Shown here: positions 25,074-44,607 of the stretch, piece after piece
Layout: each line of letters opens with the position of its first letter
Numbering within the stretch: the stretch's first letter is position 1
From: an uncultured Erysipelotrichaceae bacterium
Lineage (GTDB): Bacteria > Bacillota_I > Bacilli_A > RF39 > UBA660
Assembly: GCA_902767375.1 (NCBI GenBank)
Contig: CACXGV010000001.1
Span: 1,080 to 65,079, forward strand
Length of the DNA: 64,000 bases
Direction: 5' to 3'
Notes under the pieces: model-generated
Told to the model about the DNA's origin: nothing
Databases searched by the model: none
Seen by the model: only the letters and a program-made list of their open reading frames with translations
Translations under genes and position numbers: made by a program

Positions 25074-25096
25074 AAAAAAAAAGAGTTGTTACTCTT
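25074..25096 (-). terminator. intrinsic terminator after the stand-alone TasA-like gene
   Basis: AAGAGT / ACTCTT stem with loop TGTT, followed by a 9-nt U-run on the transcript. Confidence 0.5.
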
Positions 25097-25649
25097 TTCC
25101 ATCAGTTATATTTATTTTAGCTCTAATTTCCTTTTCCTGGTCAGTATTTTGATCAACCCCAGTATCAGGGAAATATATCTTTAATACATAATTATGAATA
25201 ACTCCATCAGCTTCCGTAAATTTACCAGAGCCAAGTAAAAGAGGCCCTAAAGTATTAGGAATAGGAGTTTGATTACTTACATTAACTACATCTTGATTTT
25301 CTGTTGGACTATAACCATTTAAAGTATAAGTTAAAGCGTTATTCGAAAAAGTATTACTCTCAACATTTAAATAAATATTATATTCCATATCAAGTTCAGT
25401 TGTATTGGTTCCTGTTAAAGCGAATCTCTTAGTAGCCCATTCTTCTTCTCTTGGATAAATATTCCTAACTTCTAAAAAATTATCTTCTGCATAAGAAATA
25501 ACCATTCTACCCGCACTTAAACTAATTGTTGAAGCATTTTCTATTCCAGTAATATTAGCTGTAAAGTATGCATAAGATACACTAACAACAGTTACAACTA
25601 AAACTATAACAGATAAAATTCCTATATATAATTTCTTTCGCTCAGTCAT
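25089..25649 (-). CDS. stand-alone TasA/camelysin-like module with SipW-type signal peptide
   Basis: MTERKKLYIGILSVIVLVVTVVSVSYAYFTANITGIENASTISLSAGRMV...HNYVLKIYFPDTGVDQ. This is the N-domain only, with no C-terminal cargo. ATG 25649 follows GGAGAGTGAT; the track start is a GTG. Confidence 0.65.
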   Translation of the reverse strand: MTERKKLYIGILSVIVLVVTVVSVSYAYFTANITGIENASTISLSAGRMVISYAEDNFLEVRNIYPREEEWATKRFALTGTNTTELDMEYNIYLNVESNTFSNNALTYTLNGYSPTENQDVVNVSNQTPIPNTLGPLLLGSGKFTEADGVIHNYVLKIYFPDTGVDQNTDQEKEIRAKINITDGKE

Positions 25650-25708
25650 ATCTATCACTCTCCAATATAATTTTACTAAATATTTATAAATAATTCAAGA
25701 ATAATAAT

Positions 25709-33778: not shown

Positions 33779-35569
33779 CTATAATCCTCCACCAGAACCA
33801 AAAGAGTCTAATTCTTCTGGAGTTAATACAACATTAATTCTCATACGTCTAGATCCACATACAAATAATGCTTCTCCTTGACTATAAGTCTTAATGCTTT
33901 CTTTTTCGTTTTCATTTAAATCTATAAGTCTAGATAAATCTTCTACTGCTTGTTTTCTTAACCCCATTACTAAATAGTAAGAAGCATTATCAAAAATAGC
34001 TTTACCATGAACAAATACATTCTCAGCAGCAAAATCTGTAGGTTGTTGAGTAATAATAATTGTACCTGTATTATACTTACGACTTCTTCTTTGAACTTGA
34101 GCTAAGAATTCCGCTCCTAATTCATTTTTAGCAGATAAAAGTACATGTGCTTCATCCACATACATTACTGTATTAATAGATTTATCTAAGCATAAACCCC
34201 AAGCATATTTCAAAATATTAAAGAAAAGTGCATTACGAATATTTTCATCACTATTCATAAGCTCTCTAATATTAAATACAACAAAATTACTATCAGTTTC
34301 AATTGTAGTATGTCCATTAAAATAATATCTAAGTTCTAAAGTAAATGGTTTAATTCTAAGAGATAATCTTTCCATTACATCTTTTTCTCTAGTAGCTTCA
34401 GGCATAGATAATAATCTACCCTTAATAGTTGAGAAAACATCATCAAATGTTGGATAATCCGCAGATGTAAAAGTACTAAAATCTGTATCAAAATCTATAC
34501 CAAATCTCTTATAAGTTTCTAAACAAACTTCACTAAACATTTGAAGTACATCATCTTCAATAGAAGGATAATAATACTTAATAAATGCTTTTAAACTTTG
34601 AAGTGTTCTAGTTAAAACAGAATGAGCAGCTCCATCCTTAATTTCTTCTTCATCAGCATCAAAAATAACCTCAAGTGGATTAATCATTCCAAAGTCTCCA
34701 CCCTTACCTAAATCGATAAAGTTTCCACCATAATTCTTAACCATATCCTCAAGCTCACCTTCAGGATCGATAGCAATTATCTTACAATTATTTCTAATGT
34801 GAGTACGAAGTAATAACTTAGCAGCAGTTGATTTACCAGAACCGGATGTACCTAAGATAATAATATTTGCATTATTTCTATTAAACTCTTTTCTTGTTTG
34901 ATATAAGAACTGATTAAATAAAACTACTCCACCAGAGAAATCTATACCAAGAAGAGTTGCACTTCCAGGATCTTTTATACTATCAAATACAAAAGGATAC
35001 ATAGCCGCTATAGTTGGACTTGGAATAGGTGTTCCTACTCTCTCTTCAATATCTTGTTTAGGGAAAATAGGAATCATTGATTTAAGAACTTTTTCTTGTT
35101 CAAACATCATTGGAATTCCACGCATTTCCATTGCATCTAAATAATTTCTAACTTGAATCTTTTTACTTTCTAATTCTTCTTTAGTATCTGCTGTAATCAT
35201 AATATGCATTTGAAAATCATATATCTTTGATTGTGTAGCAGCAAGCATTTGAACAAAAGATTCTAAAGATTCATAATCTTGACGTATTCTTTCTTGAATA
35301 GTTCTTTCATGTTCATTTTGATACCTTTGTTTTAAATCAGCAACTTCCTTATCTATCATTCTACTCATTGTAGAAAAATTAATTGGAATATGTTTAACAA
35401 CAACTTTAACCCCTGGAATATTAGTAACATTTGCTAAAAATCCAGGACCTATAACTTTAGGGAAACTAATAATAGTAAGAATAGTAGCATATTTATCACT
35501 AATCATAAAATCATTAATATTAAAGTTAATTCCTTTAGGAGCTATTTCACTTTTAAATGTACTACTCAT
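33779..35569 (-). CDS. VirB4-like T4SS ATPase, C-terminal 596-aa part (split gene)
   Basis: Walker A GTSGSGKST and Walker B VMYVDEAHVLL. Separated from the N-terminal part by a 7-bp tandem duplication. Confidence 0.85.
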   Translation of the reverse strand: MSSTFKSEIAPKGINFNINDFMISDKYATILTIISFPKVIGPGFLANVTNIPGVKVVVKHIPINFSTMSRMIDKEVADLKQRYQNEHERTIQERIRQDYESLESFVQMLAATQSKIYDFQMHIMITADTKEELESKKIQVRNYLDAMEMRGIPMMFEQEKVLKSMIPIFPKQDIEERVGTPIPSPTIAAMYPFVFDSIKDPGSATLLGIDFSGGVVLFNQFLYQTRKEFNRNNANIIILGTSGSGKSTAAKLLLRTHIRNNCKIIAIDPEGELEDMVKNYGGNFIDLGKGGDFGMINPLEVIFDADEEEIKDGAAHSVLTRTLQSLKAFIKYYYPSIEDDVLQMFSEVCLETYKRFGIDFDTDFSTFTSADYPTFDDVFSTIKGRLLSMPEATREKDVMERLSLRIKPFTLELRYYFNGHTTIETDSNFVVFNIRELMNSDENIRNALFFNILKYAWGLCLDKSINTVMYVDEAHVLLSAKNELGAEFLAQVQRRSRKYNTGTIIITQQPTDFAAENVFVHGKAIFDNASYYLVMGLRKQAVEDLSRLIDLNENEKESIKTYSQGEALFVCGSRRMRINVVLTPEELDSFGSGGGL

Positions 35570-36119
35570 TACTCATCACCGTCCCAAACTCATTTGAAGC
35601 ACCGCCATTTAGGAAGTTTTGTAGCAAGAATTTCAAATCATCATCACTTGTTTGTCTACTAACTAGTCCTATTTGTGCTAAATTACTAATTAAATTTTGA
35701 ATTCTCTTTTGACATATTTCTAACTTTTGATGTCTAAACATAATAAAATATTCTGTATCAACAACATTCATAGCTGTCGAAGTAAAACTCTCAGCTTTAG
35801 CAATATCTTGACTAATTAACTTTCTAACAGCCTGAGAAGGTGCTTGATCAAATTGTAATTGTAACTCAGATAAATATAGATTAATATCTACTGGTCTATC
35901 AGCAACCATCAACCAGAACTCATAATCAATTGTGTTATAAAAGCTTCTAAAGTTAAATATAATATTATTTTGAGTTTGCTGATCTAAAATAAAGATATTT
36001 TTTGGCTCAACTTTAATACCAGTAACATACCAATTATTATCTAAAACTATCATTCCATTTTGAATAGCCTTAATTGGTACCCAATCTTCACTATACTTAC
36101 TTTGACTCTTCTTTGCCAT
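35562..36119 (-). CDS. VirB4-like T4SS ATPase, N-terminal 185-aa part (split gene)
   Basis: WVPIKAIQNGMIVLDNNWYVTGIKVEPKNIFILD... resembles N-termini of Firmicutes VirB4 (TcpF / Tn916 Orf16 type). Removing one copy of ATGAGTA fuses it in frame to the 596-aa ORF. Confidence 0.7.
   Translation of the reverse strand: MAKKSQSKYSEDWVPIKAIQNGMIVLDNNWYVTGIKVEPKNIFILDQQTQNNIIFNFRSFYNTIDYEFWLMVADRPVDINLYLSELQLQFDQAPSQAVRKLISQDIAKAESFTSTAMNVVDTEYFIMFRHQKLEICQKRIQNLISNLAQIGLVSRQTSDDDLKFLLQNFLNGGASNEFGTVMSNE
35563..35576 (-). repeat. 7-bp perfect tandem duplication splitting virB4
   Basis: The plus strand reads tactcat tactcat, so the minus strand reads ATGAGTA ATGAGTA. Confidence 0.9.
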
Positions 36120-36426
36120 AGTTTACACACCAACCTTTCCAAAAATATGTTCTTCTATTTGTAAAATATTCATATACTATCTTTATAAGCGTCCTAACAT
36201 TATGGACATTAGGAAGCGGTATAACTAAAAAGGAACAAATAAGTACTGGTGTTAAAATAAATAATATTCCTTTTATTGAAGTAGTATTAAAATTTGCTAG
36301 TATTAATATAAATGTTGCAAGTATTCCACTACCAAATATTATTAAATCTGTTCTATTAAATAAATTTAAATATAACATAGATTTTTTTGAATTGGCTGGA
36401 ATTAAAAACGTATTATTATTCCCCAT
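36097..36426 (-). CDS. small 2-TM protein, VirB3/PrgI/TcpE-like
   Basis: 109 aa with two hydrophobic helices. Lies immediately upstream of, and overlapping, virB4, as in Gram-positive T4SS loci. Confidence 0.5.
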   Translation of the reverse strand: MGNNNTFLIPANSKKSMLYLNLFNRTDLIIFGSGILATFILILANFNTTSIKGILFILTPVLICSFLVIPLPNVHNVRTLIKIVYEYFTNRRTYFWKGWCVNYGKEESK

Positions 36427-36436
36427 TTATTCCTCC

Positions 36437-36856
36437 TTATTTTAATATATCCCTTCTAAAATCAGCTTCAGCTACTCTTTGTAAAGCAATTTTATAATTT
36501 GTATAAAAATCATCTATCTTTCTTGCTTGAACTATCATTCCAAGCCTAGATGCAAAATCACTATTATCCATTAATAGTTTTCTTAATGATGATATTTTTT
36601 CATTAAAGAATCCAGGACTTACCATAGCTACTTTTTCTTTAATGAAATCAAATATTTTTTTATCATAATCATCATTAACTTCTTTAACATACTCATCATA
36701 GAATGGAGAGTCTTTAAATTCTCTTCTTAAATCAATTAAGGCATATTCTCGATAAGTTTCAAACATTTCAATATCATCACTATCATCAGAATAATTAACT
36801 ATTGTTAAAAACTCTCCCACATATGAACTACAAAACTCATATTCTTTAGTTTCCAT
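36437..36856 (-). CDS. hypothetical acidic cytoplasmic protein (T4SS-associated)
   Basis: 139-aa ORF with a TAATG overlap onto the virB6-like gene. Confidence 0.45.
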   Translation of the reverse strand: METKEYEFCSSYVGEFLTIVNYSDDSDDIEMFETYREYALIDLRREFKDSPFYDEYVKEVNDDYDKKIFDFIKEKVAMVSPGFFNEKISSLRKLLMDNSDFASRLGMIVQARKIDDFYTNYKIALQRVAEADFRRDILK

Positions 36857-39735
36857 TATTTGCTACCTCCTTTGCCTTCAGCAGCCTTATCAGCGGCAGC
36901 ATCAATTTTATCAACAAATTTTGCTCTAAACGCACCACGAACTTCCTCTTCTTTGATACCATCTAAGAAGCCGCGGATTTGTTTTAATTCTTCAACTGTA
37001 TATTTTGTACTATCATCCTTAGAACGAACAATTTGACACAATTTATTAAATTCCTCACCCAAATTAAGAGGAACAGGTGATCCATCTGGATTCATAGTAG
37101 TTACTCCAGCTCTTTCTAAAATCCTTCTTTGAGAAGCTTCAGTTAAAGCTGTGAATTCATCACGAAGTTCGCCACTATTAGCAATCATATAAGCACGAAG
37201 ATCATCCTTAACCTTTTCTAAGTTGCCAATAATCTTTTCATCTACTTCACGCTTAGTTCTATCATCAATTTCTTTCTTTTCTTCTTCATATATGGTCTTA
37301 AGTTCAGTTTTGCGTCTTTCTAATTCAGCAAGTTCTTTACCAATATCAGTTTTTTCAAGTTCTTTTTTCTCAGCTTCTAGTACCATAGCCTCACGAGCAC
37401 CAGAATCAATCTCTAACGCAGCTAATTTAGTATCAATGTCATTAATTTTAGCACCAAATTCAGTAGCATTTAATTCATCTCTTCTAACTTTCATTTCAGC
37501 AGTAAACTTAGTTTTTTCCGTTTCTAAATCAGATAATTTAACTTGAGCTGCAGTTATTTGCGAATCGAGTCCTTTAATCTGTAAATCTTTTTTTTCTGCA
37601 GTTAAAGTAGTATCTTTCCCGATTGCGACTTTTTGTGCTTCTAATGCACTAATTTCAGCAGTAATCTTAGATTTATCTACTTCATATCTAGTTCTGAAAT
37701 TTCTAGCATCAGTGCCAATAGCCTCATTAGTTCTTTTCCAAGCTTCAGCTTCAGGTGTGGCCATTAATCTAGATCTTTCAGCATTTAAAGTCGCAGCCTT
37801 TTCAGAAAAAGATTTATATGCCTCGCTACCATAAATCCTACCTAAATCTTCATCAATCTTTCTAAATCTTGTAGCATGCTCTTCATAGCCTTCTTGACTA
37901 CGTATCCTAGTCTCTTCTCTTCTTAAATTTAATCTTTCATTGTTATAGTATTCCGTAAGACTAGCTTTTTCATTTTTAGCACGATCTTTAATTTCTTGAA
38001 CACCTTTTTGAATAGAATCAGAATTAACAATTGGATTAATTTTCTTTCTAAATTTACCGGCTTTATCAGCATTTTCACCTACACTAGTATAATTAATTCG
38101 GTTCCCAAAATAATTTTGTGGTCCGCCCTCTTGAGCAATTGCATCACTAAAATCATCAAATTTAAGTGCAAGCCCTCTTAAACCAGGAACACGATATGCC
38201 ACATTACCTGGATGTTTACTACTTGCTTCAGCAAAACGTTTTCTTTTAGCATCTCGTTTATCTATAGCCTCAAAAGTTTCAGATGAAGATTTCTTTATTT
38301 CTTTACCTAAATTTTTCAAATCTCCTCCGCTATTTTGCCATCCACGGTATCCACCATGTAAAACAGTTCTTGGAAGGTTACCTATTGCACGGCCAGCTTG
38401 TCTCCATCTATCTTTTACTGGTCGAGAAGAATATGTTCCATCAGCATTTCTTTGATTAAAAATATTAAATCCTTCTCTACCTAGATTTCTAGCTGCGGTG
38501 CCAAGTGCACCAATTCCACGTCTTGCATATTCATAATCTTCACCATTAAGTTTTTTGCCAATTCTCCATTCACCCTTAGCAAAACCACCAACAATACTGT
38601 CTAAAAGTTTAGGGGCAGTTTTGGCAAATTGTAAAATACTTATATACATAATTGCTTTAACAATTAATCTTGTTAAAGAAATATTTGATACATAATCTTT
38701 ATCAATCATGTTCCAGAAATGTCCATTATCTCTAATAAAAGACATTGTATATATAGCAAAATAAATAGTTGCAACACGGACAAATACTAACAAATAAGTA
38801 CTTTTAATTTCATTAAACCACTTAGTAAATATACCACCTGTTGGTTTTGTAATTCTTAAAATAATTGGTATTGGAGCAACAATTTCCAATACTGCTAATT
38901 TAACCGCTCTAGCTCCTACATCAAAGGCAAATGATAAGAATAAATATGCCGAAAATAGACCTAAAGCCATTGCCCATAGCCAGTGATATTCCATCGTCCC
39001 ATCAGTAACTGCTTGATTTAGTTCAGGATCTAGGAAGAATAAACTTAAAAATCCATGATCCATTGCTAAATCATATTTTTCAATATAGTGATCACATAGA
39101 GTTTTTAAATCTCCTTCAATTCCTTCTCCTGAACGGCACTCTGCAGGAGTAACGGCAATTTTAACATCCGGATTATCTGGATCTTGAGATACAGGATGAA
39201 AGAAGGTTGAAAATATTGAAACTGCTACTCTAAAACCTGCATCTTTTGTATCAATCTTTCCGTTTTTCTTAAAATCGTTGTGACTATCTTCTTCTGTCGT
39301 ACTACTCATTAAAATAATATTACCAATGATATTAGATTCTAATATACGATTTTCAACTCTATCAATTGTATCATAAATAAAAGGTAAGAGTGCAATTAAT
39401 ACAATTGAAATAACTGTATTCTTAGCAAGGCCCTTTAATGATTTATCATCATTTGCTCCTACTTTATCTGGATCAGCAATTAATCTTAATACACTAATAG
39501 CAAGAACAAATAACATTACAACCCCTAAGACAACGTAAATTCTCTTAGTAATTGCCCCTATTCCATCTGGATCATTAACATCAAAAATTCTAGCTCTTGT
39601 AACAATATAAAAAATACGATACATATAACCAGTAATATTATAAATAAGTGCATTTATAAGTAATGTAATTCCTCTTAAAGTATTTAAGACAAAATCACCT
39701 ATGTTAAATAATTTTAAAGCAACAATATTTGTCAC
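36856..39735 (-). CDS. VirB6-like polytopic membrane protein with long C-terminal coiled coil (TcpH/ConG/PrgH analog)
   Basis: 959 aa. Multiple TM helices in the first ~400 aa, then a charged coiled-coil region. Its position next to the VirB3/VirB4 genes supports the call. Confidence 0.6.
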   Translation of the reverse strand: MTNIVALKLFNIGDFVLNTLRGITLLINALIYNITGYMYRIFYIVTRARIFDVNDPDGIGAITKRIYVVLGVVMLFVLAISVLRLIADPDKVGANDDKSLKGLAKNTVISIVLIALLPFIYDTIDRVENRILESNIIGNIILMSSTTEEDSHNDFKKNGKIDTKDAGFRVAVSIFSTFFHPVSQDPDNPDVKIAVTPAECRSGEGIEGDLKTLCDHYIEKYDLAMDHGFLSLFFLDPELNQAVTDGTMEYHWLWAMALGLFSAYLFLSFAFDVGARAVKLAVLEIVAPIPIILRITKPTGGIFTKWFNEIKSTYLLVFVRVATIYFAIYTMSFIRDNGHFWNMIDKDYVSNISLTRLIVKAIMYISILQFAKTAPKLLDSIVGGFAKGEWRIGKKLNGEDYEYARRGIGALGTAARNLGREGFNIFNQRNADGTYSSRPVKDRWRQAGRAIGNLPRTVLHGGYRGWQNSGGDLKNLGKEIKKSSSETFEAIDKRDAKRKRFAEASSKHPGNVAYRVPGLRGLALKFDDFSDAIAQEGGPQNYFGNRINYTSVGENADKAGKFRKKINPIVNSDSIQKGVQEIKDRAKNEKASLTEYYNNERLNLRREETRIRSQEGYEEHATRFRKIDEDLGRIYGSEAYKSFSEKAATLNAERSRLMATPEAEAWKRTNEAIGTDARNFRTRYEVDKSKITAEISALEAQKVAIGKDTTLTAEKKDLQIKGLDSQITAAQVKLSDLETEKTKFTAEMKVRRDELNATEFGAKINDIDTKLAALEIDSGAREAMVLEAEKKELEKTDIGKELAELERRKTELKTIYEEEKKEIDDRTKREVDEKIIGNLEKVKDDLRAYMIANSGELRDEFTALTEASQRRILERAGVTTMNPDGSPVPLNLGEEFNKLCQIVRSKDDSTKYTVEELKQIRGFLDGIKEEEVRGAFRAKFVDKIDAAADKAAEGKGGSK

Positions 39736-39750
39736 TAAACAGCCTCCTTT

Positions 39751-40647
39751 CTATTGAACGCATGTTGTATAACTTGGATCTATAAATGATAAGAATAAAT
39801 TAATTAATATTGGTAAGAAGAACAATAAAACAATTAAGAATATTCTTGTAAGCAGTCTCTTATTTGCCTTAGTTAAAGCTTCAGCATCTTTATTAGCAAC
39901 AGCCTTTAAATAATCTAAAACCGTAAAGAAACCAACCATAATAGGACCAATAATTCTAATTGCATCCATAGCAGATTGTAAATCTTCACTTATCCCCGCT
40001 AATACTCCATCACAATCTGCTTCAACAGTTTGAAGTGTTGGGTCGTCGGTACTACCATAACCAGACATATTTACTGATTGGGAAACCGAACCATTACTTG
40101 AACGAGTGAATCCTGCAGCTGAAAGACTATAACATGCTCCTGAAGCAGCATCCCAAGCACAAGTATCACTTTTCTTTTTACACTCAGTTTTTTTTAAACT
40201 AGAGCATGTTGAATTATCAGTAGCTTCGGTATTATGACTAGCTCTTTGACTAGGTGTGTCGGCCTTGTTATAGCATTTCTTTGTTACAGTATCAAAAACG
40301 CAATCCGTAACTGAATTACATTTACCCTTATCGGTATACTTTGTACAACTAACATTTTCATCAACTTGTTCTTCTTTAATGCAAACAGCTTCCGCATTAT
40401 AAATATCAAATTTCGCACCAATACCTAAAAAACCAGACTTTGATTTAATCCAGCATTGAGAGGTAATATCGCTTTGTTTTTTAACCTTAGTGCCACACTT
40501 CTTACCTACTTTTTTGTTATAAGATTCATTTACTAAATCACTACTTTGAAGTTCCCATTGTTTACATATTCCAACAGCACTAGCATCTATCTTAAAAAGT
40601 AAAAATATACTAAAAAATAAACATATTGATATTAATATTTTTTTCAT
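39751..40647 (-). CDS. Cys-rich secreted domain fused to a VirB2/TrbC-like 2-TM module
   Basis: ATG 40647 (MKKILISI...) follows GAGGT. About 14 Cys, including repeated C-x4-5-[DT]C-x2-D-x4-5-CY units. The C-terminal 2-TM module (DYLKAVANKDAEALTKANKR between the helices) is paralogous to the 126-aa protein. Confidence 0.55.
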   Translation of the reverse strand: MKKILISICLFFSIFLLFKIDASAVGICKQWELQSSDLVNESYNKKVGKKCGTKVKKQSDITSQCWIKSKSGFLGIGAKFDIYNAEAVCIKEEQVDENVSCTKYTDKGKCNSVTDCVFDTVTKKCYNKADTPSQRASHNTEATDNSTCSSLKKTECKKKSDTCAWDAASGACYSLSAAGFTRSSNGSVSQSVNMSGYGSTDDPTLQTVEADCDGVLAGISEDLQSAMDAIRIIGPIMVGFFTVLDYLKAVANKDAEALTKANKRLLTRIFLIVLLFFLPILINLFLSFIDPSYTTCVQ

Positions 40648-40685: not shown

Positions 40686-40694
40686 ATTATATCA
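40686..40694 (-). promoter_or_regulatory. extended -10 element upstream of the Cys-rich virB2-paralog/virB6 operon
   Basis: The minus strand reads TGATATAAT directly after the terminator. A second TGTATAAT lies 9 nt further downstream. Confidence 0.4.
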
Positions 40695-40721
40695 TAAAAA
40701 AAAACAACCTACAAGGTTGTT
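40695..40721 (-). terminator. intrinsic terminator directly after the 126-aa VirB2-like gene
   Basis: AACAACCT / AGGTTGTT 8-bp stem with loop ACA, and a 9-nt U-run on the transcript. Confidence 0.7.
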
Positions 40722-40738
40722 TTCATACATATTTTTAA

Positions 40739-41119
40739 TTATTGAATGCAGCCGTCGGCACCTTTAGTCCAAGGTCTTAAAATGCAAGCTTCACATACAT
40801 TGAAATCCATTGATTCTTCTAGACCGTTTCTTTCAGAACTATAATTACTTACAGCGCCGAAAATAAACATTACGATACTAGGAATAAAGAAAATAACAAT
40901 ACCTGCTATAGCTCTCCACATTAGACTCTTAACAGATTTTTTAATTTCATCGTCTTTAGCTGCAGTAACTGCCTTACCAAAATCAAAAATACCATAAACA
41001 ATAATTAATAATGGAATAGCAATTTTAAATACAGTTAATATCCAACCTACTAATTGAAGGATTCCTGAAGCTTCTGAACAAAAATTACTTACATCAATAC
41101 CATCTAATATAGTAAACAT
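40739..41119 (-). CDS. VirB2/TrbC-like small 2-TM protein (candidate pilin/major subunit)
   Basis: 126 aa with two TM helices flanking DFGKAVTAAKDDEIKKSVKS and a Cys-containing tail. It has its own consensus promoter and its own terminator. Confidence 0.5.
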   Translation of the reverse strand: MFTILDGIDVSNFCSEASGILQLVGWILTVFKIAIPLLIIVYGIFDFGKAVTAAKDDEIKKSVKSLMWRAIAGIVIFFIPSIVMFIFGAVSNYSSERNGLEESMDFNVCEACILRPWTKGADGCIQ

Positions 41120-41142
41120 AATCCCACTCCTTACATATATTC

Positions 41143-41171
41143 ATTTTATATTATTTCCGCGTCAAAGTCAA
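41143..41171 (-). promoter_or_regulatory. sigma-A-type promoter dedicated to the 126-aa VirB2-like gene
   Basis: The minus strand reads TTGACT, a 17-nt spacer, then TAAAAT, followed by SD AAGGAG. Confidence 0.55.
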
Positions 41172-41173
41172 CA

Positions 41174-42205
41174 TTATTTGAATAAACCAAATAAACCTCC
41201 ACCGCTCTTAAATTTATCAAAACCTAGTTTAATTAATAACTCATCAACGGCTTTATTTCTACTACTTCTTTCATCGATATTTCCTAAAATATGAAAAACT
41301 TTTAATTTAGTCTCATATTCAAAACTAGGTATATCAGTATCAATCAAAGAACACCTATTAAGTACAATTCTTGCATTATCTCCCATAATTCTAGAATAAT
41401 CCTGATTACTAGTTAATAGTTTAGTTAAACTAACTATCCCGGGCTCCACTAAAAATAATACAAAATCGCATAAATCATTTGCCTTAATAGTATTTAAATC
41501 AATAATCACCGCTTGTTTATCTTTAAATGATTTAATCTTAAATTTCAAATCATCATATGATGTACTTTCACAAATATCTGGATCTCTAAAATATAATGCA
41601 TCTTGGTTAATCATCTCAACCCCTACTGCACTATAATAATTTCTTAACTCTTTAACCATCATATACATCAAACTAGTAGCCCCCGCATGAGGAGTTAAAT
41701 CCTGAATTCCAATAATTATCTGATTAGGATTTTTAACAACTTTATTTTCATTTACATTAGTACTTTTACTAATATCTCCAAACGGATTAAAAGAACTACT
41801 AGTAGTATCTTCTGTTAATGGATTTTGAAAACTATTAACAATAATATACTTTTCTACATCTTTTAAAGTATTAGGATGCGTAGTTAAAAAATTAATACCT
41901 CCGACATTCTTAGTAAAATCATAATATCCATTTTGCACTAACTTAGAAATACATTCCTTAGTAGTATTATTATCTAAAAGTAAGATAACTTTTTCCTTTT
42001 CAAAATAACTTAAAAAATCAAAAAGTATATCAAAATCAGTATAATCTTTAATCGCCGTAATATCTATTATAACTTTACTATAATATAAATTTACTAATTG
42101 ATCATCTAAATCACCCTTGGTAAATTCACCATGTAAAGTTTTAATAACATTAACATCAATTCTATTTAAAAGAGCACTATTTAAATTTTCAATTAATAAA
42201 TTCAC
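41174..42205 (-). CDS. MinD/ParA-fold protein with degenerate P-loop and N-terminal receiver-like domain (TadZ/CpaE-like)
   Basis: IIIGIQDLTPHAGATSLMYMMVKEL sits where the deviant Walker A would be, but there is no Lys. Later FVLFLVEPG and RIVLNRC blocks are typical of the fold. GTG start. Confidence 0.35.
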   Translation of the reverse strand: MNLLIENLNSALLNRIDVNVIKTLHGEFTKGDLDDQLVNLYYSKVIIDITAIKDYTDFDILFDFLSYFEKEKVILLLDNNTTKECISKLVQNGYYDFTKNVGGINFLTTHPNTLKDVEKYIIVNSFQNPLTEDTTSSSFNPFGDISKSTNVNENKVVKNPNQIIIGIQDLTPHAGATSLMYMMVKELRNYYSAVGVEMINQDALYFRDPDICESTSYDDLKFKIKSFKDKQAVIIDLNTIKANDLCDFVLFLVEPGIVSLTKLLTSNQDYSRIMGDNARIVLNRCSLIDTDIPSFEYETKLKVFHILGNIDERSSRNKAVDELLIKLGFDKFKSGGGLFGLFK

Positions 42206-42219
42206 GCCATCATCTTCCT

Positions 42220-42654
42220 CTATAATTTGTCATTTGCAAAATACACTGCTTTACTCTCACCAGTAACAGGGAAAGTAAATAAACTACCAAATATTGGTAA
42301 ATCTAATTTAAAATAAACTGTAACATAATAATAAGTCTTTTTAAATGTTCCTTCACCTTTAGCTTTGGTAGAAACACAATATCTATACTTTTTTTGTCCA
42401 CCAACAAGTTCATCATAACCCTTGGCATCTTTACAGTTACCATAAACAAAATAACCATAACCGTCTAAATACTCACTAATTTCAGTTCTAGCTTTACTAT
42501 TCATACCTTCATTTTGTTCAATAATATTAATAATACCATTCTTAACTCTAAATGCTTTTGAATAGTTTACAGATACAGCTAAATAACCAGAAAAGAGCAC
42601 TATAAATACGATAACTATGGTAAATATCCACGCTCCACCAATTGCTTCTCTCAT
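42220..42654 (-). CDS. pseudopilin/TadE-like membrane-anchored protein
   Basis: MREAIGGAWIFTIVIVFIVLFSGYLAVSVNY: a short charged N-terminus, a Gly, and a ~20-aa hydrophobic helix. Confidence 0.3.
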   Translation of the reverse strand: MREAIGGAWIFTIVIVFIVLFSGYLAVSVNYSKAFRVKNGIINIIEQNEGMNSKARTEISEYLDGYGYFVYGNCKDAKGYDELVGGQKKYRYCVSTKAKGEGTFKKTYYYVTVYFKLDLPIFGSLFTFPVTGESKAVYFANDKL

Positions 42655-42666
42655 CTATAAGACTCC

Positions 42667-42915
42667 TTATTTATTATTTTGATTACATTGAACTGTGCCA
42701 GTTTTTGTACAAGCTTCATCTTCACAGTATTTGCAAGTACACATACCAGTACTAGCATTACAGTTATTACATTCGTAAGCTTGAGAACAATGAGTACTTC
42801 TTAGAATGTTTGCCTTAATTGATGGCCATACTAATGTTGTAAACACCACCCCTATAGCAGCAATTGCTACAACTGCAATAGCAGTCATACTTAATTCTCC
42901 AGATGCTTCTTTCAC
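42667..42915 (-). CDS. Flp-like small pilin candidate with Cys-rich C-terminal knot
   Basis: MKEASGELSMTAIAVVAIAAIGVVF resembles Flp leader/core sequences (ESG..TAI..). The C-terminal 40 aa hold 8 Cys. GTG start 9 nt after AGGAGG. First gene behind a consensus promoter. Confidence 0.35.
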   Translation of the reverse strand: MKEASGELSMTAIAVVAIAAIGVVFTTLVWPSIKANILRSTHCSQAYECNNCNASTGMCTCKYCEDEACTKTGTVQCNQNNK

Positions 42916-42950
42916 TTTTACATTCCTCCTATTCTTATAATCATAATATC

Positions 42951-42979
42951 ATTATACCTCATTAATTTCAATCTATCAA
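42951..42979 (-). promoter_or_regulatory. consensus sigma-A-type promoter of the Flp-like/TadE-like/TadZ-like operon
   Basis: The minus strand reads TTGATA, a 17-nt spacer, then TATAAT, followed by AGGAGG and the GTG start. Confidence 0.6.
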
Positions 42980-42990
42980 TTATCTTTTTA

Positions 42991-43015
42991 CAAAAAAATA
43001 GCACCAAAGTGCTAT
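42991..43015 (-). terminator. intrinsic terminator after the cadherin-like surface-protein gene
   Basis: ATAGCAC / GTGCTAT 7-bp stem with loop CAAA, and a 7-nt U-run on the transcript. Confidence 0.6.
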
Positions 43016-44607
43016 TCATAATCATAGTTTTTATCACTCTTTGCAGGTACTACTTTTCCTAATAATTTAAAGCCAAATACTGCTGCAATGCCTAAAACAA
43101 TTGCTCCGATAACATACAATATTACATTAGTTGATTTAATAATATTTATAGTATATATGTTTTCTTCCCCGTTTAAAGCTGTGACTTTTATTCTAACTGT
43201 TGATTTATTCTTAAGATGGGCATTTCCTAAAATAACATATTCAGCTTCTTCATTATCTAATTCAACCTCAATATTTAATTTATCATCACGATTCTTAAGT
43301 TTTAATTTATAATCATTTACATTAGGATTAAAATTAATTTTATATCCATCAATCTTAATACTTTTAATTAAATTATTTCCTTCTTCTTCCTCATTGATTC
43401 CAAACTTAATATTAATAACATAAAGTTTAGTACTTCCATCTTCAGCTGTAACTGTAACTGTAATTGGTTTGATATCTGAAATATCCTTATTATTAGCAAT
43501 TTCAACCTTAGCTTTTTCAGATTCAGCAGTAGCCGTTACAACAATATCTTTAGTACCTTTTGGTACTTCAATAGTATAAGTAGTAGTATCTTTATTAAAC
43601 TCTAACTTACCAATATCTACCTTTAATTCTTTTAAATAACTATTAGTATCTAAAACTGGTCCATTATACTTAATATTAATAGTATATGTTCTAGATGATC
43701 CACTTTCAGATGTAACAACAATTTTAATCGGATTTTCCTCATTAAAATTATCATTATTTAAAACAGATACTTTTGCTTTACTAGATTCAGCCTTAGCATT
43801 TACATCTATTTTAGTAACATCTCTATCAATATTAATAGTATATTCAGTAGTATTTTTATTAAATTCAATTGTTCCTTGAGACAAACTTAAACTACTTAAA
43901 TAATTATTAGTATCTTTACTTGGAGTAGATGAACCACCACTACTCTTAAATTTAACACTAATTAAATATGTTCTAGTAGAACCATTTTCTGCAATAACAG
44001 TTACAGAAATTGGAGTATTTTCACTAATATTTTTATTATTATTAATTGAAATAGTAGCTCTATTGGATTCAGCAGTTGCTGAAACAGTAACATTCTTAGT
44101 TCCTTTTGGTACCTCTATTTGATAAGCAATCGTATTCTTATTAAATCTAATAGATCCAGGAGATACCTTTAAACTCTTTAAATAATTATTAGTATCTAAA
44201 GTACTGGTTCCTCCACCACCACCCATATAAGTAGTACCATCTTTATTCTTATCGCAATCATACATAACAACTAAAGAGCAGTATTTAACATCTGTTCTAG
44301 GAGTACATGATCCGCTATACTGATCACAACCACTTCTAATTGTCTTAACATAATAATTCCTATTTCCATTAGAACATGAAACCATATCACTAGATATATA
44401 ATATTCTTGTTTCCATTCTCCTGTATAACAACTAGCTCTCTTACATTGTCCGATATATCCTTGACCAGAAGCATTAACTAAATTATCTTGAAAATTAATA
44501 CATCCATTATAACCAATATCATTTCCAACTGGTGTACTAGAATTAGCACCCCAAACAACAACAGGCCACATAAAAGCAAGGCCTAAAACTATCCATAATT
44601 TCTTCAT
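43012..44607 (-). CDS. surface protein: Cys-rich N-domain, four cadherin-like beta-sandwich repeats, C-terminal TM
   Basis: Repeats of the type NNYLKSLKVSPGSIRFNKNTIAYQIEVPKGTKNVTVSATAES...STRTYLISVKF. ATG 44607 follows AGAGGTG. Confidence 0.7.
   Translation of the reverse strand: MKKLWIVLGLAFMWPVVVWGANSSTPVGNDIGYNGCINFQDNLVNASGQGYIGQCKRASCYTGEWKQEYYISSDMVSCSNGNRNYYVKTIRSGCDQYSGSCTPRTDVKYCSLVVMYDCDKNKDGTTYMGGGGGTSTLDTNNYLKSLKVSPGSIRFNKNTIAYQIEVPKGTKNVTVSATAESNRATISINNNKNISENTPISVTVIAENGSTRTYLISVKFKSSGGSSTPSKDTNNYLSSLSLSQGTIEFNKNTTEYTINIDRDVTKIDVNAKAESSKAKVSVLNNDNFNEENPIKIVVTSESGSSRTYTINIKYNGPVLDTNSYLKELKVDIGKLEFNKDTTTYTIEVPKGTKDIVVTATAESEKAKVEIANNKDISDIKPITVTVTAEDGSTKLYVINIKFGINEEEEGNNLIKSIKIDGYKINFNPNVNDYKLKLKNRDDKLNIEVELDNEEAEYVILGNAHLKNKSTVRIKVTALNGEENIYTINIIKSTNVILYVIGAIVLGIAAVFGFKLLGKVVPAKSDKNYDYE
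43138..44199 (-). repeat. four cadherin-like beta-sandwich domain repeats (~83 aa each), coding
   Basis: Repeat boundaries at about residues 140-223, 236-317, 322-405 and 413-493 of the track ORF. Confidence 0.65.

Follow-up and report, generated by a model that had tools for sequence, protein, structure and literature searches.

A probable VirB2-like hairpin protein in what appears to be a conserved transcription unit of the type IV secretion locus of RF39-like Bacilli

The stretch of 64,000 nucleotides analysed here, called the window throughout (assembly GCA_902767375.1, contig CACXGV010000001.1, positions 1,080 to 65,079 of the forward strand), belongs to an uncultured Erysipelotrichaceae bacterium and contains a chromosomal type IV secretion system (T4SS) cluster, in which a small gene for a membrane protein of 126 residues is accompanied by transcription signals of its own. 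This arrangement of promoter, gene, and terminator is very likely a conserved transcription unit. Its product can be assigned with good, though lesser, confidence to a T4SS pilin-like family. Going one step further, we think it more likely than not that the gene provides an abundant short VirB2-like hairpin, which serves a chromosomal T4SS of the monoderm type and is expressed from its own cassette. An earlier reading of the same DNA made from its letters alone (the sequence-only reading) had already described the gene as an insulated monocistronic cassette for a VirB2-like subunit with a cysteine-rich paralogue next door.

Every gene in this part of the window is oriented on the minus strand, which is also the strand of the cassette elements and neighbouring genes given in the following. 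The 126-residue protein is encoded at 40739..41119 and represents, according to its open reading frame (ORF), profile matches, and an AlphaFold2 model, the short form of a PF18895-like family of two-helix membrane proteins. The gene is preceded by a sigma-A type promoter (41143..41171) that consists of TTGACT (41171-41166), a spacer of 17 nt, and TAAAAT (41148-41143), with 10 matches at the 12 hexamer positions. The -35 hexamer already starts 2 nt past the stop codon of the upstream gene, which encodes 343 residues. A Shine-Dalgarno sequence, AAGGAG (41127..41132), is located 7 nt ahead of the ATG, and strong GAGG/AAGGAG sites were present in all 30 orthologous loci that were inspected. Only 15 nt past the stop codon begins a terminator-like hairpin, GAAAACAACCT-TGT-AGGTTGTTTTT, that runs into a stretch of T and was identified by pattern and by folding (40696..40724). 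The hairpin itself (40724..40700) has a core of 8 bp (AACAACCT/AGGTTGTT) that can be extended to 11 pairs around the TGT loop. Folding gave a centroid energy of -10.9 kcal/mol (z = -2.4), and among 200 shuffled sequences 4 were as stable. The T-run is abutted by an extended -10 element, TGATATAAT (TGnTATAAT, 40686..40694), presumably the restart promoter for the gene of the 298-residue paralogue and the operon of the secretion machinery. Downstream of this element a GAGG lies 9 nt ahead of the ATG (40647) of the 298-residue gene.

All of the elements named in the sequence-only reading, namely the promoter of the gene, the strong Shine-Dalgarno sequence, the terminator, and the extended -10 element, were thus found in place, with two corrections. 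The terminator had been described as an 8-bp stem plus nine U. The 8-bp core is correct, but the tail was slightly double-counted because two to five of the nine consecutive T that follow AGGTTG are part of the stem. Secondly, a scan for terminators at the locus revealed none between the upstream 343-residue gene and the promoter of the 126-residue gene, and the cassette is therefore insulated at its 3' end only. The description as an insulated monocistronic cassette holds for the 3' side, which has the terminator, but not for the 5' side, and from the sequence, transcripts of the upstream gene trio (82, 144, and 343 residues) probably run through the 126-residue gene too. Within the T4SS cluster of the window, terminator-like sites are present solely after the 126-residue gene, a gene of 534 residues, and virD4. 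The second of these sites is also part of a terminator-then-promoter junction (window 42943-43017). There, the 534-residue cadherin-like gene ends with a hairpin and T-run, after which TTGATA-17-TATAAT (11 of 12 matches) precedes the 82-residue gene, and the locus is therefore apparently divided into at least four transcription units.

Because promoter-like sites are as frequent in this AT-rich stretch (80 found) as expected from shuffled sequences (77.7), the promoter in the window is not significant when taken alone. The cassette becomes significant because it is conserved across orthologous loci. A profile (A1) was built from 35 homologues of the 126-residue protein, and orthologous loci, 56 of them distinct, were taken from species-representative genomes of the same order and from GTDB contigs. 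In our own simple pattern scans promoters were allowed at most one mismatch per hexamer and a spacing of 16-18 nt, terminators had to comprise a hairpin and a T-run at most 75 nt from the stop codon, and the ORFs of at least 150 residues in this genome served as baseline. A near-consensus promoter is present in 55 of the 56 orthologous loci compared to 9.6% of the ORFs of this genome; these loci share descent, and the counts given here are accordingly not independent trials. A hairpin with T-run was found in 51 loci (91%) versus 27% of the ORFs, which rules out that the terminator is just ordinary background. Of the 51 terminator-bearing loci, 31 also have TGnTATAAT, with one mismatch allowed, no more than 45 nt beyond the stem. 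The terminator stems are unrelated in sequence from locus to locus, and the promoter spacers are likewise divergent. Therefore, it is the element itself that has been kept, which speaks against mere inheritance of sequence. The layout of promoter, gene, and terminator including the restart element is thus conserved across dozens of genera, as would be expected had the sequence-only reading recognised a real unit.

The cassette is also preserved where the gene context has changed. In eight genomes belonging to three genera the virB4 gene, which is single and highly conserved in these genomes (71-76% identity), is separated from the short gene by 20-65 kb or located on a different contig. In one of the three genera a strong consensus promoter and a tRNA gene lie downstream of the short gene; homologues of the T4SS or Tad-like genes of the window were not found within 9 kb of it, and virB4 is encoded elsewhere in the genome. 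The upstream gene in this genus has a hydrophobic anchor at its end. In the other two genera (four genomes) the short gene ends a block of dnaB, dnaI, the cadherin-like gene, and the trio, with virB4 56-65 kb away or on a different contig. The short gene is also the first of an array of paralogues beside virB6 at no fewer than eight further loci, where the trio is absent or 5 kb away. Promoter and terminator accompany the short gene in every one of these settings. Given that the cassette has been kept where it is unlinked from virB4, it represents an autonomous unit.

The identity of the protein becomes apparent at the level of the family. The Pfam family PF18895 (T4SS_pilin) is matched by 28 of the 35 family members at E <= 0.01, the best value being 2.1e-6, while no other family is matched by more than 7 members. 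Several homologues of the 126-residue protein carry precomputed PF18895 matches, and long forms, in which the two-helix module is joined to further domains, score 25.1-25.9 bits. The NCBIfam family NF045849 (Mbov_0395 pilin-like conjugal transfer protein) matches the 126-residue protein with 17.2 bits (E = 0.0031, cut-off 40) and 7 of the 35 members at E <= 0.01; all NCBIfam matches to the family remain below threshold. As far as can be judged from such similarity at the family level, the 126-residue protein and its relatives seem to form a large unnamed branch of PF18895, and the earlier assignment to the VirB2-like type is supported in this sense. In contrast, the matches to TrbC/VirB2 or Maff2 profiles that might have been expected are missing: TrbC/VirB2 (PF04956) gave none at E <= 0.1 for the window proteins or at E <= 0.01 for the 35 members, and Maff2 gave no Pfam match at E <= 0.1 for the window proteins and none in the family-wide search. 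A tblastn search of the PLSDB plasmids with the 126-residue protein gave no match, and the family is thus not known from sequenced plasmids.

AlphaFold2 predicts the 126-residue protein as a hairpin of two helices, residues 10-53 and 56-97, with a short tail helix (predicted local distance difference test (pLDDT) 74). C14 is on the N-terminal side of the hairpin, a basic loop joins the helices, and the tail contains C109-x2-C112 and C124. In the family alignment the loop has on average 6.1 lysine and arginine residues compared to 0.1 in the N-terminal flank. By the positive-inside rule the loop is therefore predicted to be cytoplasmic and both ends to be outside. The modelled hairpin and this charge distribution are compatible with a VirB2-like topology, as had been supposed. 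The loop is also the most conserved part, with a majority-residue fraction of 0.79 compared to 0.37 in the N-terminal flank and 0.43 in the tail. In the structures of the F and T pili the loop of the VirB2-type subunit lines the lumen while the ends are exposed, and by analogy a conserved basic loop with variable outer ends is the pattern to be expected of a VirB2-type fibre subunit.

A cysteine within about 15 residues before helix 1 and at least one more after helix 2 are shared by 156 of 165 distinct modules. In the short form one cysteine is on the N-terminal side and three are in the tail (C-x2-C...C), and modules of the type present in the 298-residue protein have one on either side (C223 and C296). 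The predicted topology places both positions outside the cell, so that a disulfide joining the outer ends is the simplest reading. Judged from these sequence positions, such a disulfide probably ties the two outer ends of the hairpin together. T-pilin and TrbC are cyclised by a peptide bond between head and tail, and the putative disulfide would recall this cyclisation by means of a different chemistry.

The gene following the cassette (39751..40647) encodes a protein of 298 residues comprising a signal peptide (residues 1-24), an ectodomain (25 to about 210), and a hairpin (about 212-298). The signal peptide is of the Sec type (...KIDASA/VG), as are those of the other long forms, all of them read from the sequence. 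In BLASTP the 126-residue and 298-residue proteins share 24% identity over 63 residues (E = 3e-6), and the profile of the short family matches residues 230-289 (243-302 of the stop-to-stop frame) at about 1e-6. By these alignments the neighbour is a true paralogue, and it indeed has the same two-transmembrane-helix module behind a cysteine-rich secreted domain, as the sequence-only reading had suggested. The mature part contains 14 cysteines, of which 12 are in the ectodomain while C223 and C296 bracket the hairpin. The repeated cysteine units proposed earlier are also present: there are two units of the form C-x4-5-[DT]C-x2-D-x5-CY, CNSVTDCVFDTVTKKCY and CKKKSDTCAWDAASGACY, and both have been retained in a 47%-identical orthologue. 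The whole protein has only three homologues among 5.8 billion sequences, and its ectodomain is therefore young or fast-evolving. An AlphaFold2 model based on the resulting four-sequence alignment (pLDDT 53) is informative only for the terminal helical hairpin and the beta-rich nature of the ectodomain. A possible identity of the ectodomain as PSI/plexin repeat (E = 0.098) was discarded as insignificant.

The fusion of the hairpin to other domains is widespread. In relatives, arrays of one to seven genes that encode a signal peptide, an ectodomain, and a hairpin (125-630 residues overall) are located between the short gene and virB6, and the copy adjoining virB6 is the orthologue of the 298-residue gene. 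Thus, two hairpin modules are encoded at the locus in the window and two to eight at those of the relatives. In an exhaustive search of public data the family matched 7,628 sequence clusters (E <= 0.001); long forms predominate among the top matches. When ten long forms were scanned with Pfam, an extra domain was found in three (a GDSL esterase, an alpha/beta-hydrolase, and Big_2). The enzyme in the alpha/beta-hydrolase fusion is C-terminal to the hairpin and by the predicted topology outside as well. Enzymes carried on the pilin-like module may act on the envelope of a partner cell. The genome of the window encodes two further orphan paralogues of the module outside any T4SS context. One (contig C29:49538-50801, plus strand) has 421 residues and consists of an N-terminal module with a C-terminal extension of 330 residues. 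The other (contig C56:2892-3318, plus strand) has 142 residues including a signal peptide and is encoded between recA/RNase Y-like genes and an mscL-like gene.

In the window and at most related loci the short gene is found beside T4SS core genes, the exceptions being the eight genomes in which it is unlinked from virB4. Downstream of the 298-residue gene the order is a VirB6/TrbL-like polytopic protein of 959 residues, a protein of 139 residues, a two-transmembrane-helix protein of 109 residues, VirB4 split into two genes (185 and 596 residues), a hydrolase combining M23 and lysozyme domains, an NlpC/P60 protein, and VirD4. The 959-residue protein (36856..39735), the next in the operon, was assigned from TrbL_4 (3.9e-5), Mbov_0396 (8.7e-4), and synteny, and VirB4 (33779..36426 together with the preceding 109-residue protein) from NF045975 (1.2e-15 and 4.7e-102) and synteny. 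The 109-residue protein is conserved just upstream of VirB4 and is VirB3-like by size and position only. Many genera share the order of pilin-like protein, VirB6-like protein, small two-helix protein, and VirB4. The cassette is preceded by the Tad-like trio (41174..42915; recognised as ORFs), which is also found directly before the short gene in many relatives, and further upstream there are dnaB/dnaI-type replication genes and RNase J, so that the cluster sits among core genes.

Several observations concern the neighbourhood. The N-terminus of the 959-residue protein (residues 61-122; window 39370-39555, minus strand) weakly matches T4SS_pilin (E = 0.013) and is likewise laid out as a helix, an acidic/basic loop, and a helix with LP; it is undetected by the profile of the short family, and the match may be due to chance. 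The trio is partly duplicated in relatives, which have two 82-residue and two 144-residue genes, and the 343-residue protein has a second copy in this genome (contig C23:13109-14117, E = 7.6e-77). An ORF of 189 residues at 25089-25658 of the window has a weak camelysin/Peptidase_M73 match and represents the N-terminal module of a large dispersed family, with at least 18 paralogues (E <= 1e-6) over many contigs of this 1.05-Mb genome.

A profile search recovered the protein family, with one to ten copies per genome, from 292 of the 301 genomes that were sampled from the RF39-like family. The related genomes are metagenome-assembled genomes of 0.6-1.6 Mb from gut and rumen that are labelled as uncultured Tenericutes, Bacilli, or Erysipelotrichaceae, and which we take to belong to the GTDB order RF39. 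Of the nine genomes without the family, five also do not contain VirB4, VirD4, and the 343-residue gene. In the remaining four, virB4 is only 1-5 kb from the start of its contig and the upstream region is unassembled. The five genomes missing the whole suite (four from the same family and one from a sister family) are rated 90-95% complete; either the suite has really been lost there or the region has been poorly binned. The gene contents suggest that the T4SS suite is inherited and lost as a whole, and the absence in these nine genomes thus does not separate the pilin-like gene from the T4SS or from the trio.

Taking these data together, the cassette might work as follows. The short protein would insert into the membrane with both ends outside and the conserved basic loop inside. 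Its gene would be transcribed from the near-consensus sigma-A promoter and additionally by read-in from the upstream operon. The intrinsic terminator would stop most of the transcripts, resulting in far more mRNA for the subunit than for the machinery, and the extended -10 element together with some read-through would allow expression of the downstream operon at a lower level. The first product of this operon, the 298-residue paralogue, would be a minor, domain-displaying subunit. In the model for diderm T4SSs, pilins are extracted from a membrane pool by VirB4 and VirB6 provides the platform (PMC4027160, PMC12857230). By analogy, VirB4 would here draw hairpins from such a pool and VirB6 would be the platform for their assembly, and the long forms would join the same assembly via the common hairpin and expose their domains. 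The transcript ratios, the disulfide, and the co-assembly of short and long forms are what we infer, and over-expression and fibre formation of the 126-residue protein would likewise be expected on the grounds of sequence. The product may be either a long fibre or a short membrane-proximal structure crossing the wall. A real filament is possible, although we would put its chances at roughly one third.

Several observations weigh against a VirB2-like subunit made in excess. The match of the 126-residue protein of the window itself to PF18895 reaches only 17.8 bits (E = 0.0035), below the gathering score of 26.6 bits. To this must be added the missing PF04956 match, and a profile search of the PDB sequences did not find solved pilins; GPCR helices (G protein-coupled receptor, E = 0.14) appeared there as a chance match, of the kind that hydrophobic hairpins attract. 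Searching the PDB with the AlphaFold2 model in Foldseek gave an archaeal conjugative pilin as top match (8dft, E = 2.6, template modelling (TM) score about 0.5), which is not significant, and a helical hairpin is too simple for such a fold search to be discriminating. The short form does not have the cleaved signal peptide of classical VirB2 when read from its sequence; instead, about 13-25 acidic or neutral residues precede helix 1, without a basic n-region. It is 50-72% identical across genera and thus unusually conserved for an exposed fibre subunit. Finally, the gene is also the last one of the upstream operon, so that the terminator could simply mark the end of this operon.

Alternatively, the hairpin might not be a polymerising pilin but a membrane anchor or docking module of the inner-membrane complex of the T4SS, with the short form being a stoichiometric component of the channel and the long forms tethering adhesins or enzymes. 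The fused ectodomains range from GDSL esterase, alpha/beta-hydrolase, and Big_2 to cysteine-rich repeats, a diversity characteristic of generic anchors. Moreover, the short form and especially its loop are strongly conserved, the N-terminus of the VirB6-like protein weakly matches the same profile, and the structural comparison did not give a significant match to solved pilins. However, about 50 loci keep a strong promoter and a terminator dedicated to the gene, which suggests that its product is required in large excess, the best match at the family level is T4SS_pilin, and variable outer ends with a conserved basic loop fit a VirB2-type fibre. We regard the anchor as unlikely, with perhaps one chance in four of being correct.

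It is also conceivable that the 126-residue gene is nothing but the last gene of the operon of the Tad-like trio, in which case the terminator would be the end of this operon, the extended -10 element would be the ordinary start of the T4SS operon, and special over-expression would not be involved. The missing terminator between the 343-residue and 126-residue genes is in agreement with this, as are the four genomes from two genera that keep the short gene with dnaB, dnaI, the cadherin-like gene, and the trio far away from virB4, and the five genomes in which the trio has been lost along with the pilin-like gene. However, VirB4 and VirD4 have been lost in the same five genomes, so that this co-loss does not support the trio. 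An internal operon gene would not need the near-consensus promoter of its own that was found in all but one of the loci. In addition, the loci at which the short gene heads an array beside virB6 do without an adjoining trio, in one genus the gene stands alone beside a tRNA gene, and its paralogues are located within the T4SS operon. Therefore, we consider it improbable that the gene simply terminates the trio operon. That the similarity to pilins is an artefact of composition, and the protein an unrelated small membrane protein (holin-like, or a twin-helix protein for stress or ions) that came to lie near the T4SS by chance, can hardly be upheld, because against the weak single-sequence E-values for PF18895 and the comparably weak matches to 'twin_helix', other membrane families, and GPCR helices stand the preference of the family members for one Pfam family, the synteny with VirB6, the small two-helix protein, and VirB4 across many genera, the paralogues embedded in the T4SS operon, and the loss of the family together with VirB4 and VirD4.

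The abundant VirB2-like hairpin expressed from its own cassette thus remains the explanation that we prefer, and it could be developed further. In these RF39-like Bacilli, true members of the Bacillota, the short protein might be the major subunit, without signal peptide and pseudo-cyclised by a disulfide, of a VirB2-type filament; it would be made in excess from a portable cassette, and the filament would be decorated by the ectodomain-bearing paralogues. Such a modular 'display pilus' might mediate cell contact in a dependent lifestyle like that of the Patescibacteria. The disulfide would then, by analogy, stand in for the peptide-bond cyclisation of T-pilin and TrbC, and the paralogues would prime or decorate the fibre and display cysteine-rich repeats in the case of the window and Ig-like adhesins or esterases in the case of the relatives. 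This extended proposal is speculative, and we doubt that it is correct in all its parts.

The finding is of relevance for the distribution of T4SS pilins. Pilin homologues were not found in the monoderm classes of T4SSs by Guglielmini et al. (PMC4027160), and a review from 2025 states that Gram-positive T4SSs have neither VirB2 nor VirB5, the Patescibacteria being the sole exception (PMC12857230). Despite this stated absence of VirB2-type pilins from monoderms (also in PMC12102498, with the same exception), a protein of apparently VirB2-like type is encoded in almost all genomes sampled from a family of gut and rumen Bacilli with small genomes. Our literature searches for T4SSs, conjugation, or pili of RF39 found nothing relevant. 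The regulatory design points to one highly expressed subunit and variable domain-bearing relatives. If a surface structure is assembled, 'Gram-positive T4SS pili' would extend beyond the Candidate Phyla Radiation (CPR), the abundant uncultured RF39 bacteria would have a testable candidate for cell contact, and VirB2-like hairpins would be known to carry adhesins and enzymes. As a conserved pair, promoter and terminator also represent a compact natural expression cassette for this lineage. The sequence-only reading knew of no VirB2-type subunit with a large disulfide-rich ectodomain from described Gram-positive T4SSs. This agrees with the literature insofar as VirB2 is said to be missing there except in Patescibacteria, but the cysteine-rich protein is not a special case because the hairpin is fused to many ectodomains throughout the lineage.

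The regulatory part of the design has precedents in other pili. A stem-loop, acting as terminator or attenuator, after the subunit gene results in more mRNA for the subunit than for the machinery in the case of papA in the pap operon, of the monocistronic type IV pilin genes, and of flp-1 in tad loci. Unlike the system described here these are chaperone-usher or type IV pili and not T4SSs, and here an extended -10 restart element directly follows the terminator. The pilin genes of the virB and tra operons are not known to be separated from the other genes by a dedicated promoter and terminator. With VirB2 (Ti), TrbC (RP4), and TraA (F) the short form shares the size class, the two hydrophobic helices with a short basic loop, the predicted topology with both termini outside, and the presence of VirB3, VirB4, and VirB6 homologues nearby. 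It differs from them by not matching PF04956, by the short form not having a cleaved signal peptide, by the monoderm host, and by the conserved cysteine pairs.

The same order of pilin-like protein, large transmembrane protein, and VirB4 is found in the integrative and conjugative element (ICE) of Mycoplasma with Mbov_0395, Mbov_0396, and Mbov_0397 (NF045849, NF045889, and NF045975). The VirB4 of the window is closest to NF045975 (4.7e-102), yet its score of 342 is below the cut-off of 590, and the other two families are also matched below their cut-offs (NF045849 by the 126-residue protein with 17.2 versus 40, and NF045889 by the 959-residue protein with 18.9 versus 70). In contrast to the Mycoplasma genes, those of the window are chromosomal and not part of an ICE, and they include peptidoglycan hydrolases, so that a cell wall is presumably present. 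Tandem amplification and diversification of pilin genes is shared with the Trw T4SS of Bartonella, in which multiple variable VirB2 and VirB5 copies have been proposed to vary surface binding (cited in PMC12857230). There, however, the host is a diderm, and the copies are variants of the same size without fusions to unrelated ectodomains.

The closest known systems are the T4SSs of Patescibacteria such as Southlakia epibionticum ML1 and Nanosynbacter lyticus TM7x (PMC12102498, PMC12857230). A survey based on PF18895 has revealed arrays of 2-11 pilins in their chromosomal and mostly relaxase-less T4SSs (PMC12102498), and in the one system tested genetically the array, made up of six divergent VirB2-like pilins, was reported to be essential (PMC12857230). 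Common to both groups are a monoderm MPF-FATA-like T4SS with VirB3, VirB4, and VirB6, a TrsD-like split N-terminal part of VirB4, a wall hydrolase, VirD4, and surroundings of core genes. They also share small genomes, tandem arrays of divergent two-helix pilin-like proteins, and the similarity to PF18895 (PF18895 and PF04956 matches in Patescibacteria). The differences are the host, which is a member of the Bacilli (RF39-like), the conserved short form in its own promoter-terminator cassette that can be unlinked from the T4SS, the large ectodomains, some of them enzymes, of many of the paralogues, and the cysteines bracketing the hairpin. PMC12102498 and PMC12857230 describe neither a portable cassette of a conserved short form nor hairpins that are often fused to ectodomains and bracketed by cysteines. 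By analogy, the system in the window is of the same kind as the T4SS with pilin arrays of the Patescibacteria, but it is encoded in Bacilli.

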